Source of the DNA: a virus
Lineage: Duplodnaviria > Heunggongvirae > Uroviricota > Caudoviricetes
Reading direction: 5' to 3' (one strand)
DNA: 64,000 nucleotides
Virus record (IMG/VR): IMGVR_UViG_3300008107_000010
Both the position numbers and the translations under genes were made by a program. Shown here one piece after another: positions 10,658 to 47,278 of this stretch. The notes beneath the pieces were generated by a model. That model saw only the letters and a program-made list of their open reading frames with translations, made no database searches and was not told the DNA's origin. The stretch's first letter is position 1, and the number at the start of each line of letters is the position of its first letter.

Positions 10658-11758
10658 TTATTCATTAAAAGGTTTTTCGTATTTTGGTTTAACTAACTTC
10701 CAAATTATTTCTGAGTAATCTTTTTCATCTAGCATTTTAAATAAAATTCCAGGATGCGCAAAGTTTTTAGAAAATTGAGCAAATAACTTTCTAGTTCCTA
10801 ATCTTTTAATTGAATCAAAATGATCTAAATATTCATTTTCTAATTTAGAGTATTCTAATCGAATATTTTTTTCAGTTCTTTTAACCCAGTTGTAAAACTC
10901 ATCAGGTACATCTTTTAACATTTCTTCTGGTAATTTACCAAACTTCATTAAGTTTTCCCAAATATCATAAGAAGATACATTTGTCAAGATACGGTGCAAA
11001 GCAACATAATCTTCAAATTTAATTTTAACTCGAGTATTTGATGGAAAGAAACGCAAAACATAACCTTCTTCGTTCTGTTTATTTAAAGCCTTTAACTTTT
11101 TATACAAATCATGGCCTAAATGCTCTTTAAAGATTTGTTCAGTTTTTACAATATCTTTGGCTTTAATACCAGACATTTTAAAGTAGGCTTTTGCAGTAGT
11201 CCAATGTAACTCATCTTGGTCTGACTCTTTCCAACCGTTAAAAGTCCAGTTAATTACAGCACCCAGGAAGACAAGATTTTCTTGTTTATAATTAACTACA
11301 ATTCGATTCTCTGGGTAGATAATTTCACAAATATAGGCCACTGAAGGTTCAAATACATCTAAGATATATTTTGACTTTAAGATTTCCATGCCACGAATGG
11401 CTTGATCCGAAGTAAAAGAACCTCGAGTTGCCATAATCCATTCGCCATTATAATTAAATAAGATACCTAATGAACCGTCCATTTTATCTTGGACATATAC
11501 ATATTCTGAACTCAACCACGGTACATCATTCGGTATCTCTTCGTAGTTAAAAAACTTTGAAAATGGTTTAACTATCACCTTTCCAGTGATGTCATCGGTA
11601 ATCACGCCTCGACACGACAGAGTAACCTCGTCCCAATGAGATTCATATTGGGTTGATTGTGAATAGTTGTATATAGACAATGGCAAAGACGGATGGGTCT
11701 GTTTAATTAACCATCCATCTTCAACATATTTGTCTAATATCTTTTTGTCTAATTTCAT
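10658..11758 (-). CDS. rnlA: RNA ligase 1 (T4 Rnl1/gp63-like tRNA repair ligase)
   Basis: SIYNYSQ...CRGVI...KPFSKFFNYEE...QDKMDGSLGILF aligns with T4 Rnl1 (RIFSYNYAS...ECRGIMF...EKFFNLNENP...TKEDGSLVSTY). Confidence 0.75.
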   Translation of the reverse strand: MKLDKKILDKYVEDGWLIKQTHPSLPLSIYNYSQSTQYESHWDEVTLSCRGVITDDITGKVIVKPFSKFFNYEEIPNDVPWLSSEYVYVQDKMDGSLGILFNYNGEWIMATRGSFTSDQAIRGMEILKSKYILDVFEPSVAYICEIIYPENRIVVNYKQENLVFLGAVINWTFNGWKESDQDELHWTTAKAYFKMSGIKAKDIVKTEQIFKEHLGHDLYKKLKALNKQNEEGYVLRFFPSNTRVKIKFEDYVALHRILTNVSSYDIWENLMKFGKLPEEMLKDVPDEFYNWVKRTEKNIRLEYSKLENEYLDHFDSIKRLGTRKLFAQFSKNFAHPGILFKMLDEKDYSEIIWKLVKPKYEKPFNE

Positions 11759-11774
11759 ATGTAAATATAAACAA
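11757..11774 (-). promoter_or_regulatory. early-type conserved motif ATATGTAAATATAAACAA, copy 1 (abuts the rnlA ATG)
   Basis: Exact 18-mer shared with 7 other sites. Confidence 0.5.
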
Positions 11775-11810
11775 AAAACTTGACGCGGTAAAATTATTTT
11801 TGAATTTCTT

Positions 11811-11975
11811 TCAACTTTTTCTTTGCTCTAATTCGGTGATAATTTCATTGCGCCGAGTTTTTAACTTTTCTAATTTAACCTGTTTAAACCATTTACCAAG
11901 CCATGAACAAGGAACATGGTTTTCAAAGTATTCTATTTCTGCATTAATTAACTTTAATTCCTTCTTTAGGGCCAT
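11811..11975 (-). CDS. small hypothetical protein
   Basis: ORF 11811..11996 with an internal Met at 11975. Confidence 0.2.
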   Translation of the reverse strand: MALKKELKLINAEIEYFENHVPCSWLGKWFKQVKLEKLKTRRNEIITELEQRKS

Positions 11976-11979
11976 GGTA

Positions 11980-12393
11980 TTATAGTTTAACTTCAAAACG
12001 ATTTTTCATACGATCTAATGCCTCTTCAGGAACACCATGTATATTTTTGCCACCATGTCGATTTTCAACAATTAACGAAGTAACTTGATAACCCCATTCC
12101 TTTGCAAGTTTATAATAAGCATCCATTTCCCATTCTTGTGTAAATGTATTAGATACAATAATTTTGATATTGTGCCCAGTTGTATGATTTAACAACATTG
12201 CATGTTCTACCGAATTTTGACACCATTGATGCGCATCTTTTAATTTAGTAGCATCAAACTTATATTCACCATCAACCATAAAATACATATCCGCCTCAAA
12301 GTGTGCAACACCTGCGCCTCCTGCTCCTAAAAGCGTTGCTGTAGTACTTTTACCGCTTCCTGGCAATCCTCTTAATAATATTAAATTTTTCAT
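11980..12393 (-). CDS. P-loop polynucleotide kinase-like protein
   Basis: LILLRGLPGSGKST resembles the T4 Pnk N-terminus (GCPGSGKST). 137 aa, kinase domain only. Confidence 0.5.
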   Translation of the reverse strand: MKNLILLRGLPGSGKSTTATLLGAGGAGVAHFEADMYFMVDGEYKFDATKLKDAHQWCQNSVEHAMLLNHTTGHNIKIIVSNTFTQEWEMDAYYKLAKEWGYQVTSLIVENRHGGKNIHGVPEEALDRMKNRFEVKL

Positions 12394-12399
12394 AATTGA

Positions 12400-44881: not shown

Positions 44882-44910
44882 TTAATGAGAATTATTTTCT
44901 TTATATATTC

Positions 44911-45594
44911 TCAGTAATCCGTGACTAGTAGGACTTCAGGATTATCACCACTTAATTTCTGGTCGCTCATCATATCGAGCATATTAGCAACAGCATCTAC
45001 AACATCCATATCTGTAGATGTTATTGACTCTATAATCTTTTTATCTGCTCTAATAATCCATTCATCGAGTCGATCAATCAGGTCATTGAGCTTAATTCTT
45101 CGGTATGGAGTGCCTTCTTCTAAGATTCTTTGGTCAATTAGAATTTTATTAAACATTTGAACTTCTTCATTTGTTTCGAAAATATCAAATGTTTTGAGAG
45201 TCATGTGAAGTATTTTAAATCCAAATTTAATTTGAGAATTTCCATTTGAATCTTTAATAAGTCTAGAATATTTGCTATTTTTATTTAAAGTCAATTTAAT
45301 CCATCTAAGATTCTGCATGTTTTTTAACATGTTTGCGATAAAATAGATTGAATTTACTTCTTTGTGAATAACTTCATAACCAACAGCATTAAATGTATTT
45401 AGTTCATTTTTAAATGAATGCTTAATAAAATTTTCTAGTTGGTCTTTAGTAACAATAATAGAGCCGTCATTTGGCTCTAAATATTCTACTTTGTTTCTAA
45501 TGCCTGTCCATAACTTATTATCACTATGATTATATTTGTAAAGGACAATATCTATAACATCAGATCGGTCATATAGTGAAAAGTTCTCGGTCAT
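44911..45594 (-). CDS. hypothetical protein
   Basis: 227 aa. Confidence 0.35.
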   Translation of the reverse strand: MTENFSLYDRSDVIDIVLYKYNHSDNKLWTGIRNKVEYLEPNDGSIIVTKDQLENFIKHSFKNELNTFNAVGYEVIHKEVNSIYFIANMLKNMQNLRWIKLTLNKNSKYSRLIKDSNGNSQIKFGFKILHMTLKTFDIFETNEEVQMFNKILIDQRILEEGTPYRRIKLNDLIDRLDEWIIRADKKIIESITSTDMDVVDAVANMLDMMSDQKLSGDNPEVLLVTDY

Positions 45595-46022
45595 TAATAC
45601 ACTTTAATTGTTTCGTCTAGCTTTTTTAATTCAGCAAGAGTTTCTTTTTTATAAAACTTTATTAGCTCATTATACTCTCTTTTACCAATTTCATTCTTTC
45701 TAATAAAAAATTCTATTGCTTCTTGACTAGGTATGTATTCGCTTTTTTCAGTTTTTACCGGTTCAGATTTCTTTGTTTTAGTATAAATCCAAGGTGGGAC
45801 AGCAGTAAATCTTTGAGCAACAAGACCCCAACTCTCAACAACCGCAAGACCATTAATACCATTAATGTTAAATGCCTGCGCGTTTGTCGGGAACTTAATC
45901 GCAAAGAAGCGATTAATCATAAAATGATGTCGCTTCTTTGTGTGGTCTTTAATATTTTGAAAATCTTTATGCTTTGTAAACATTATTTTTACAAAGTCAA
46001 ATAATTTAGTATCGTCTAACAT
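45594..46022 (-). CDS. hypothetical protein
   Basis: 142 aa. Confidence 0.35.
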   Translation of the reverse strand: MLDDTKLFDFVKIMFTKHKDFQNIKDHTKKRHHFMINRFFAIKFPTNAQAFNINGINGLAVVESWGLVAQRFTAVPPWIYTKTKKSEPVKTEKSEYIPSQEAIEFFIRKNEIGKREYNELIKFYKKETLAELKKLDETIKVY

Positions 46023-47245
46023 TAAAATAAAGTGTTTGTAGTTTTAGAGTTATCATTCACTTTTGTTTCATGTTCTTCTAAACCAGCAAAAGCATCAAAA
46101 TCAACGGGTGTTGTATTAGCCTTCTTTAACCACCCTGTGCCTTCTAGGATCTTTTCCATCTGTGATAATGACATAATCATTGGTTCCATTTGCTTATCCT
46201 TTTCAATACACTTAATGATTTCTCGTTGTATCGGGTCTGGTATTGTATTATAATGTAATAGCATCAAATCAAGATTTTGGTTAAAACGAACCAAGATATT
46301 CGCTTGAGTTTCATGGGCAACTACTCGATAAATCAAGTTAACAATTTTATCAACTTGTGTTTGGTTAAACATGTGGTCGATAACGAAGTTTCCTTCTTCT
46401 TTATTATATTGATTTAAGATAGACTCGGCCTGCTTGTCAGTAATTGAAAATGTTCTTGATTTACCATTCTTCATAGATTTTTGCCAAGTAACAACTGATT
46501 TAATATTATCGGATTTGTCACCCATTAGAATCTTTTGAAAAACAAATCGATCACAATTTACTTCTTCAATTTCAATTTGATTCTTTTTAATCCATTCAAC
46601 TAGCTCGTTTTTAATACGATCGCTTTCATGCGCTGGACTATCTAAATTAAATAGAAGATCGTCAGTGTTAATTTCTAATTCTTGATTTTTATTAAGCAAT
46701 TCATTGAAACCTTCAAATGTAATAAGTTTCTTTCTAGTATTATAATACCAGAGAGTATATCCATCGGTTGCCTTTGAATAGTCAACTAATTGAATCATAT
46801 CTCGGTCGCCAGTCCAAATAATTGTATTCTTACCTTGTGAATTAAGATAAGTTGACCAAGCAAAAAGAATGTCATCAGCTTCAGCACCTTTTACTTGATG
46901 TACAATAACACCCTTTTTGGCTAAAATTAGTTTAAACTCATCATAAACTTCGTAAACAGCTGACCAATCAACTGAACTATCTTGAGTTCTTGTACCTTTA
47001 TAAAAGGCTTCTGGAAATAGATCTTTACGCCACGATTTTGAATCAACTGCAAATACTATTTGGTTGACAAATGGCGCCATTTTTCTAACTTCAGATGCGA
47101 AATCAATCGCAAGTTTTCTAATAAATTGTCCTTTACTATTGTCATCTCCTAAAAGAGCGCCAGACTTAGGTCTAGGAAGGACAAAAAGTCTACTATGAAT
47201 GAAATAGTTTCCATCGATTAGTAGTGTATGATTACCAAACTTCAT
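46022..47245 (-). CDS. rnh: 5'-3' exonuclease / flap endonuclease (T4 RNase H-like)
   Basis: LLIDGNYF N-terminus, AEADDILFAW, and helical arch ILMGDKSDNIKSV resembling T4 Rnh ILKGDKKDNVASV. Confidence 0.75.
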   Translation of the reverse strand: MKFGNHTLLIDGNYFIHSRLFVLPRPKSGALLGDDNSKGQFIRKLAIDFASEVRKMAPFVNQIVFAVDSKSWRKDLFPEAFYKGTRTQDSSVDWSAVYEVYDEFKLILAKKGVIVHQVKGAEADDILFAWSTYLNSQGKNTIIWTGDRDMIQLVDYSKATDGYTLWYYNTRKKLITFEGFNELLNKNQELEINTDDLLFNLDSPAHESDRIKNELVEWIKKNQIEIEEVNCDRFVFQKILMGDKSDNIKSVVTWQKSMKNGKSRTFSITDKQAESILNQYNKEEGNFVIDHMFNQTQVDKIVNLIYRVVAHETQANILVRFNQNLDLMLLHYNTIPDPIQREIIKCIEKDKQMEPMIMSLSQMEKILEGTGWLKKANTTPVDFDAFAGLEEHETKVNDNSKTTNTLF

Positions 47246-47261
47246 ATCTTTATCTATTTGT

Positions 47262-47278
47262 TTATGTAAATATAAACA
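47262..47278 (-). promoter_or_regulatory. early-type motif, copy 8 (variant TTATGTAAATATAAACA)
   Basis: 17 nt upstream of the rnh ATG. Confidence 0.4.

Follow-up and report, generated by a model that had tools for sequence, protein, structure and literature searches.

Repeated intergenic cassettes of an uncultured T4-like phage as probable early-type promoter/terminator units with a Bacteroidota-like core

The early promoters of phage T4 form a large set of highly similar sequences with an A/T-rich upstream region resembling UP elements, and beside them there is a separate late class that consists only of a -10 element and is read by gp55. In T4-type phages, small variable genes are flanked by PeSLs, cassettes of a strong promoter and a stem-loop, which mediate insertions and deletions (indels) and the formation of mini-circles and whose promoter consensus follows that of the host (Arbiol et al. 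2010, PMC2839356; Comeau et al. 2014, PMC4122927). In Flavobacterium johnsoniae, the -7 box TAHHTTTG has nearly invariant T-12, A-11, T-8, T-7, T-6 and G-5, transcription starts 4–5 nt downstream of this box, and the -33 element is weak (PMC6847099). The promoter P_BfP1E6 is a strong constitutive promoter in Bacteroides thetaiotaomicron without phage (PMC11554821). The subject of the present work is an intergenic module of about 80 nt that occurs in eight copies in a stretch of viral DNA of 64,000 nt (IMG/VR record IMGVR_UViG_3300008107_000010), analysed at its full length and called here the window. In our opinion, it is probable that these cassettes are early-type promoter/terminator units read by host RNA polymerase and represent a Bacteroidota counterpart of the T4-type PeSLs.

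All eight modules are intergenic and lie on the gene (minus) strand. They share an 18-mer, ATATGTAAATATAAACAA on the plus strand (TTGTTTATATTTACATAT on the minus strand), whose recurrence at eight positions had been correctly recorded in an earlier note on this DNA: six copies are exact (starts at 11757, 13281, 20371, 24867, 26464 and 27567), the copy at 15075 has one mismatch, and the copy at 47262 has two. The chance expectation is 0.8 matches with at most three mismatches, and nine matches were reached in none of 100 shuffles; the ninth match of the window, at 874 with three mismatches, is situated within an open reading frame (ORF) and is not significant (E = 3.6). The nhmmer profile built on 102 non-redundant copies from the phage family detected in the window the same eight copies only, with E from 1e-15 to 2e-6, the next match having E = 0.78, and a degenerate copy suspected earlier near 10620-10650 is absent. 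The distance of 13–25 nt between the end of the motif and the ATG, claimed previously for all copies, was found in seven of the eight modules; before rnlA it is 34 nt, and the in-frame ATG overlapping the end of the motif there is unlikely to be used as a start.

Module 1 (11723-11812; E = 7e-12) is located upstream of rnlA, the gene of RNA ligase 1 (10658-11722), and contains the 18-mer at 11757-11774 with the -33 block TTTTACCGCGTC upstream of it; it has no stable fold, no hairpin and no copy of the palindrome GTTAATAAC. Module 2 (13262-13356; E = 1e-15; 18-mer at 13281-13298) precedes an ORF of 71 amino acids, followed by phosphoesterase/kinase genes, and includes an embedded hairpin at 13302-13325 (-14.6 kcal/mol, z = -4.9) and a single GTTAATAAC at 13343-13351. 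Module 3 (15062-15160; E = 3e-7), in front of an ORF of 56 amino acids, carries the variant TTGATTATATTTACATAT at 15075-15092 and has a separate predicted intrinsic terminator directly upstream, at 15138-15159 (-15 kcal/mol, z = -4.1). The gene of an extracytoplasmic function (ECF)-type sigma factor (19725-20345) is preceded by module 4 (20346-20452; 18-mer at 20371-20388), where tandem copies of GTTAATAAC at 20432-20440 and 20444-20452 make up GTTAA-N7-GTTAA.

Module 5 (24845-24914; 18-mer at 24867-24884) stands before an ORF of 114 amino acids, the first in a run of nine genes including those of denV-like and Fpg/Nei-like glycosylases. Module 6 (26442-26545; 18-mer at 26464-26481) precedes an ORF of 72 amino acids and again has tandem GTTAATAAC in the form GTTAA-N7-GTTAA (26525-26533 and 26537-26545), the distal copy overlapping the stop codon of the CCA-adding enzyme. 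Module 7 (27553-27642; E = 2e-13; 18-mer at 27567-27584), before an ORF of 89 amino acids and then a tRNA nucleotidyltransferase gene, contains an embedded hairpin at 27587-27612 (-17.4 kcal/mol, z = -7.9) and a single GTTAATAAC at 27629-27637. Finally, module 8 (47246-47314; E = 2e-6), upstream of the rnh/5'-3' exonuclease gene (46022-47245), has the variant ATGTTTATATTTACATAA at 47262-47279 and just a weak A/U-rich stem; its position upstream of rnh is kept in loci L079 and L062.

The cassette is not restricted to the window. The exact 18-mer was found in IMG/VR in at least 120 stretches from at least 85 contigs of 5–236 kb, and nearly every listed match has the whole cassette. A single protein-sharing component with the window comprises 117 of the 120 listed loci, and the three outliers are matches without flanks. 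Absence of the motif from related genomes, an objection raised in advance by the earlier note, was looked at, and the full cassette of about 80 nt is present in at least 82 IMG/VR contigs of the same lineage. The proteins common to the window and its relatives, which were compared as fragments of at most 15 kb each, have only 45–90% amino-acid identity, and neutral intergenic DNA would be randomised at such distances; the motif is therefore under selection.

The profile search of the family loci (1.06 Mb) gave 231 copies, and in 206 of them an ORF starts within about 70 nt downstream (median ORF of 103 amino acids). Most of these ORFs are small ORFans, and a comparison of the ORFs downstream of family modules with the structural proteins of the window gave zero matches. 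In 73 unique non-exact copies, positions 4–15 (TTATATTTACAT) are at least 95% invariant, and positions 0 and 3 switch between T and A.

A scan of GTDB (596 Gb of bacterial and archaeal genomes) for the exact 18-mer yielded 86 single matches spread among taxa, all of them lacking the flanks; the cassette is an element of the phage lineage and not of host genomes. A Sphingobacterium metagenome-assembled genome (L157), considered as a module-like clue to the host, was rejected (19.5 bits, no phage proteins in common). The 18-mer of Psychrobacter (L125, L126, L130, L133, L146, L158, L162 and L194) occupies one conserved site downstream of a terminator, has flanks unrelated to the phage module and appears to be a fortuitous match inherited by descent. 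Nothing but primers and other unrelated sequences came up when the literature was searched for the motif; the motif itself is new to the searchable literature, its lineage is uncultured, and the kind of element is already known.

The information content was computed with the copies aligned on the 18-mer. The conserved blocks relative to it are AAAATA at -37, a T-rich region from -20 to -11 (ATTTT, then TTTAT or ACCGT) and a T-run from -4 to -1. Conservation falls sharply right after the 18-mer, the next base being A or C in 95 of the 102 copies, and the leader between the 18-mer and the ATG consists of 60% A and 4% G. From 5' to 3', the family cassette comprises an upstream element (TTGTTAATAAC or TTTAACA-N4-TTTAACA), TTTTTGAAAATAA, a hairpin or AAAAGTTTTACCGTTTGA, the T-run, the 18-mer, the A-rich leader and the ATG.

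As a promoter, the minus-strand cassette would begin with one or two optional GTTAA-type elements (GTTAATAAC) right after the stop codon of the previous gene, followed by a putative UP-element-like region of A/T tracts (TTTTTTGAAAATAA) and a weak T-rich -33 element (TTTT[A/T]CCGT or TTTTTTTAT), which about half of the family copies carry inside the hairpin loop. The -7 box with A at -5 would be part of the near-invariant core TG(T/A)TTATATTTACAT. The predicted first transcribed base is the final T of the 18-mer or its neighbour downstream, 4–5 nt past the box and exactly where conservation stops, and a leader of 13–25 nt without a Shine-Dalgarno sequence would then reach the ATG. Host RNA polymerase with its primary sigma would read the cassettes early in infection, and their products would be small ORFs, the RNA-repair and DNA-repair genes, rnh and the ECF-type sigma of the phage. 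The promoter activity, start site, sigma identity and timing given here are predictions made from sequence.

The core TTATATTTAC corresponds to the sigma-A -7 box of this phylum (TAnnTTTG) with A for G at -5, and TATATTTA of the module agrees with the F. johnsoniae box at five of six positions (T-12, A-11, T-8, T-7 and T-6). Like Bacteroidota sigma-A promoters, the module has no G at -10 or -9, AT-rich flanks at about -18 and -28, a weak -33 element and no Shine-Dalgarno sequence in the leader; unlike the consensus, it has extra invariant bases, TG(T/A)T upstream and CAT downstream. Among relatives, the box is TATATTTAC, the canonical TATATTTG(T/A) or TATATTAG(C/T) in otherwise identical cassettes, at times within one locus, and L237 and L239 have the same upstream sequence and different boxes. 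The likeness to the sigma-A -7 element proposed earlier is well supported, and it seems rather probable that host sigma-A reads the module.

Mixed box types were observed in 38 loci, and the distant relatives with TATATTTG(T/A) or TATATTAG(C/T) upstream of the sigma gene include L213, L214, L219, L225, L228-L236, L239, L240, L244 and L251-L256. The modules score 9/12 on the sigma-70 consensus, as TTTACC-N17-TATATT; a scan for this consensus gave no more sites than shuffled sequence did. A sigma-70 reading of the Escherichia coli type was rejected in view of the near-absent Shine-Dalgarno sequences. An N4-like hairpin promoter was also rejected, half of the modules having no hairpin.

Terminators were found in three of the eight modules, two embedded (13302-13325 and 27587-27612) and one adjacent upstream (15138-15159), and the remaining five have no stable hairpin; the coupling to a terminator, described earlier as a usual property of the module, stands for those three only. 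The hairpins of the window fold with -14.6 to -17.4 kcal/mol and z from -4.1 to -7.9. In the family, a perfect stem of 9–12 bp with at least two G-C pairs, ending 3 nt before TTG, was found in 57 of 108 unique modules, whose stems represent 37 sequences and whose loops are TTTT, TTTTTT or TTTACC. In the covariation set of 22 distinct hairpin-bearing copies, both partners have changed in eight of nine pairs, 20 further pair types being present, and shifting the partner columns by 1–3 positions abolishes pairing.

The hairpin and the following UUUUUUG are predicted to be a classical intrinsic terminator. Its loop would carry the -33 block and the 3' T-run would act as the promoter spacer, the terminator of the upstream gene thus being nested in the promoter of the next one. 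In the module at 15075 and in loci L050, L046 and L006, the terminator stands apart, upstream of the A/T region, and further copies have no terminator. The reading of the cassette as a putative promoter plus terminator, suggested by the earlier note, is well supported by comparative evidence, because the position, orientation, family-wide conservation, hairpin covariation and likeness to a validated Bacteroides phage promoter all point to it.

This Bacteroides promoter deserves a separate comparison. Whitaker et al. 2017 reportedly used GTTAA(N4-7)GTTAA(N34-38)TAnnTTTG as their search consensus. When the Bacteroides phage B124-14 (L207) was scanned for GTTAA-N4-7-GTTAA-N34-38-TAnnTTTG, five matches were obtained versus none in 100 shuffles. 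These sites (4186-4246, 6398-6458, 6697-6755, 24515-24575 and 37961-38021, all on the minus strand) are intergenic, lie on the gene strand, have the box TTATATTTG and the common leader form CAGTGTCAAAAGGAAACAAATTACTAACA, and several of them have a terminator hairpin just upstream. The P_BfP1E6 sequence given in PMC13634575 agrees with the site 4186-4246 at every base; as P_BfP1E6 is active without phage, there is a precedent for a similarly built cassette that host polymerase reads by itself.

Like the modules of the window, the B124-14 sites are repeated intergenic cassettes on the gene strand with a hairpin and T-run, tandem GTTAA, the box TTATATTT(G/A) and an A-rich leader with ACAAATTA. 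The canonical G is found at -5 in B124-14, whereas the window has A. The two GTTAA elements are separated by N4-7 in B124-14 and by N7 in the window, where modules 4 and 6 fit GTTAA-N4-7-GTTAA, modules 2 and 7 have a single copy, and four modules have none. The two phages are unrelated, B124-14 being a siphovirus and the window belonging to a T4-like myovirus, and they share no homologous sequence apart from these short elements. The ACAAATTA part of the B124-14 leader recurs in leaders of the window family (CAAATTA in 27 of 102) and may be a translation or leader signal of Bacteroidota.

A Shine-Dalgarno-like 4-mer was found in only three of the 76 genes of the window, and the upstream regions are A-rich. 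The ECF-type sigma (19725-20345, minus strand), a second phage sigma with regions 2 and 4, has its best NCBIfam match in TIGR02985, a Bacteroidetes ECF subfamily, under the family cut-off and over the cut-off of the sigma70-ECF superfamily. The scarcity of Shine-Dalgarno sequences, the A-rich upstream regions and the match to TIGR02985 make a Bacteroidota host likely.

Several facts weigh against host-read cassettes. G-5 is replaced by A in all eight copies of the window and in most family copies, which do not have the strict TAHHTTTG box. The -33 position falls on TT(A/T) at the right distance and not on TTG (the Bacteroidota -33 TTG/TTTG is located about 19–21 nt upstream of the box). The invariant stretch of 12–18 nt is more than a sigma-A box requires and could reflect an extra factor or the recombinational homogenising of copies. 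Canonical TAHHTTTG boxes occur in the family at background level (27 of 1322 upstream regions), and no independent textbook class of host-type early promoters was seen in these upstream regions. The phage itself encodes an ECF-type sigma, and the host is itself a prediction. GTTAA is 34–38 nt from the box in B124-14 versus about 52 nt in the window, the full pattern is unmatched there, and the relation to the B124-14 type is therefore a resemblance and not membership. Finally, the covariation set was chosen for pairing, so that its figure of 99.5% paired is inflated and the diversity of stems is the informative part.

Among other explanations, one is that the strict conservation mainly reflects a recombination linker, exchange between copies shuffling promoter-plus-ORF cassettes and homogenising the repeats. 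It would add to a promoter function, and we regard it as possible but clearly on the improbable side. The T4-like PeSLs, composite elements of the same kind, mediate indels and mini-circles (PMC2839356, PMC4122927), and the window has T4-like core genes (gp17-like terminase, gp55-like sigma, rnlA, rnh, gp46/47-like and denV-like). The ORFs downstream are mostly small ORFans. Two anecdotal cases may be added: the colinearity of L074 stops at the homologue of module 5, and in L106 a single module joins genes that are parted in the window by two extra genes on either side of module 2. However, the first breakpoint test, although strongly significant, was confounded by interval length, and among short junctions controlled for length, synteny breaks were found in 2 of 6 with a module versus 6 of 80 without it, which is not significant (p = 0.09); the relatives are moreover seen as fragments of at most 15 kb. 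Recombination within genomes alone cannot explain conservation between genomes at 45–60% protein identity.

Another explanation, which we consider doubtful, is that the ECF-type sigma of the phage reads the module as a middle-class promoter and positively autoregulates its own gene via module 4, host-type early promoters being elsewhere. The invariant core of 12–18 nt exceeds the usual element of a primary sigma and is typical of ECF-type promoters, A stands in place of G-5, and the protein with its regions 2 and 4 is above the superfamily cut-off. At least 49 homologues of this sigma, 55–100% identical, were found in IMG/VR, and in most of the 49 relatives examined a variant of the module is directly upstream of the sigma gene, the usual arrangement of autoregulated ECF factors; no third motif was found in the family upstream regions as a target of this sigma. 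Against this, the module is the sole recognisable promoter of the sigma gene, which leaves nothing to start its expression, and a lytic phage needs promoters read by the host. The replacement of TATATTTAC by canonical TATATTTG or TATATTAG in identical cassettes, as in L237 versus L239, and the parallel with the B124-14 promoters, among which P_BfP1E6 needs no more than the host RNA polymerase, also favour the host enzyme. In addition, the module has no AAC-type -35 element, and its -33 block is weakly conserved.

The upstream palindrome was the basis of a further proposal. The sequence GTTATTAAC occurs on the plus strand at 13343, 20432, 20444, 26525, 26537 and 27629, with about one copy expected; GTTAATAAC is thus present in four of the eight modules, two of which have it in tandem at a spacing of 12 nt, and nowhere outside modules. 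Described earlier as a perfect 9-bp palindrome, it is in fact an imperfect 4+1+4 palindrome with an odd central base always in the same orientation. In the family it was found in 30 of 102 modules at the fixed position -53/-52 from TTG, a few having a second copy at -64/-63, and the inverted form GTTATTAAC was found on the module strand in none of 102. The same zone in other modules contains TTTAACA at -44 and -33 (GTTAA on the opposite strand, in an 11-nt phase) or AAGTGA repeats.

It is rather unlikely, in our estimation, that GTTAATAAC is an operator bound by a dimeric repressor or activator of the phage or host that controls a subset of modules gene by gene. The 4+1+4 dyad symmetry, the fixed placement of both copies, the 6- to 8-fold excess over chance in the window with confinement to modules on the gene strand, and the presence in some modules only, which would permit differential control, are in agreement with such a role. 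However, the centre of GTTAATAAC lies about 66–78 nt upstream of the predicted start, beyond the zone where a repressor blocks polymerase, and a symmetric dimer would not demand a central base that is never inverted. The element is optional, its zone is filled in other modules with phased TTTAACA-N4-TTTAACA, its tandem form GTTAA-N7-GTTAA is like that of the constitutive host-read B124-14 promoters, and no candidate binding protein was identified. The operator put forward in the earlier note is not supported, and GTTAATAAC is rather an optional upstream element of fixed position that recalls the GTTAA elements of the B124-14 promoters.

A bolder variant, for which we see little probability, combines these ideas: the cassettes would form an autoregulated regulon of the phage's own ECF-type sigma, and the embedded terminators would make the small genes insulated and recombination-ready. 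If true, an uncultured family of T4-like Bacteroidota phages would run its pre-late programme largely free of the host primary sigma and shuffle ORFans via the 18-mers. A selfish or neutral dispersed repeat similar to a miniature inverted-repeat transposable element (MITE), or a chance AT-rich recurrence without a regulatory role, may be practically dismissed in spite of the AT-richness and the 86 chance exact singles in unrelated bacterial genomes (596 Gb), as none of 100 shuffles reached nine matches, every copy is co-oriented with its gene at a fixed distance from the start codon, the copies are kept across genomes with proteins only about 50% identical, and neither terminal inverted repeats nor target-site duplications are present. 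Orientation and fixed distance to start codons likewise ruled out a MITE or replication-iteron reading.

A second motif of the window belongs to the ATATATAA class, ATATATA(A/G) or TATAAATA, and occurs 19 times on the gene strand versus five on the other strand. Each of the 19 gene-strand sites lies between genes or at most 60 nt from a start, most of them before structural genes (portal, capsid, sheath and tube); minus-strand sites are 58421-58428, 55950-55957, 53891-53898, 51836-51843, 50171-50178, 44901-44908 and 42906-42913, and further ones are 40382-40389, 37772-37779, 37143-37150, 35681-35688, 22096-22103, 19265-19272 and 5159-5166. This motif is enriched family-wide (90 of 1322 upstream regions) and stands 25–35 nt before the ATG without conserved flanks, which T4 late promoters lack too. 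It fits a predicted gp55-type late promoter, and ATATATAA with the gp55-like late sigma would drive the structural genes. This sigma is encoded by an ORF of 130 amino acids with a GTG start (57133-57525, minus strand), matching phrog_234 'late sigma transcription factor'; gene calling with ATG only shortens the ORF to 93 amino acids. The tRNA-Ser gene (anticodon TGA; 32608-32697, minus strand) has TATAAATA in front of it at 32704-32711.

A non-coding stretch of about 350 nt (15135-15486, minus strand) has 42% G+C compared to 33% in the genome, late-type ATATATAA at its start (15479-15486) and a strong terminator at its end (15138-15159). It contains stop codons in every minus-strand frame, has no Rfam match, folds with z = -0.09 versus shuffles, and adjoins the gene of a DUF2828/DUF7788 protein labelled 'RNA-binding protein' in PHROGs; the stretch possibly encodes an unknown phage RNA. 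In the Rfam searches, which covered the window and 15040-15500, only the tRNA and terminator-like noise came up. Direct repeats were observed within large structural genes at 33543-34187, 49336-49505 and 52423-52702, with units of about 279 nt in the gene of a tail protein of 930 amino acids and spaced repeats of 66 nt and 198 nt in two other genes.

All genes of the window are on the minus strand. They include those of a gp17-like terminase, tail sheath, major capsid protein and portal, of gp46/47-like nuclease subunits and an rnh-type 5'-3' exonuclease, of denV-like and Fpg/Nei-like glycosylases, and of RNA ligase 1, a polynucleotide-kinase-like ATPase with a phosphoesterase and a CCA-adding enzyme. 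A DNA-level search of INPHARED with 20 kb of the window gave zero matches, and the best matches of the terminase, 30–44% identical, are those of uncultured huge phages, Tenacibaculum phage PTm1, Sphingomonas phage PAU and T4-like phages; the window represents a T4-like myovirus without a close sequenced relative. The RNA-repair genes at 10658-13044 and 26541-27281 (minus strand) encode RNA ligase 1, the polynucleotide-kinase-like ATPase, two phosphoesterases and the CCA-adding enzyme, and this set suggests a countermeasure against anticodon nucleases of the host.

Returning to the cassettes as probable host-read promoter/terminator units, it may be concluded that they tag about 10% of the genes of the window, and likewise those of dozens of uncultured relatives, as putative pre-late transcription units, thus giving a simple annotation key for this phage lineage and a hint at a Bacteroidota host. 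TTTAC, TTTG and TTAG, which alternate naturally in the same context, form a mutational series on the sigma-A reading of -6 and -5. A compact cassette of about 80 nt with an optional terminator could serve as a strong promoter part in Flavobacteriia and other Bacteroidota, as P_BfP1E6 does in Bacteroides.

With the early promoters of T4, the cassettes have in common a large set of highly similar sequences before predicted early genes, an UP-like region and a separate, putative late class beside them, whereas the specificity of the host polymerase differs. Like PeSLs, they are short conserved composite units with an AT-rich upstream region, repeated beside small variable non-structural ORFs in the genome of a T4-like myovirus; their putative strong promoter would be adapted to the primary sigma of the host, and the stem-loop would insulate the gene in transcription. 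A promoter and an adjacent stem-loop are combined in one unit in three of the eight modules of the window and in 57 of 108 in the family, the rest having the promoter part only. The PeSL promoter is of the TTGACA/TATAAT type, whereas the cassettes have the -7 box of the Bacteroidota type. The hairpin of PeSLs is upstream of the AT-rich region, whereas in about half of the family cassettes it is within the promoter, over the -33 element, with the T-run as a spacer. In this form, the idea of PeSLs would be extended to a phylum with a different promoter grammar.

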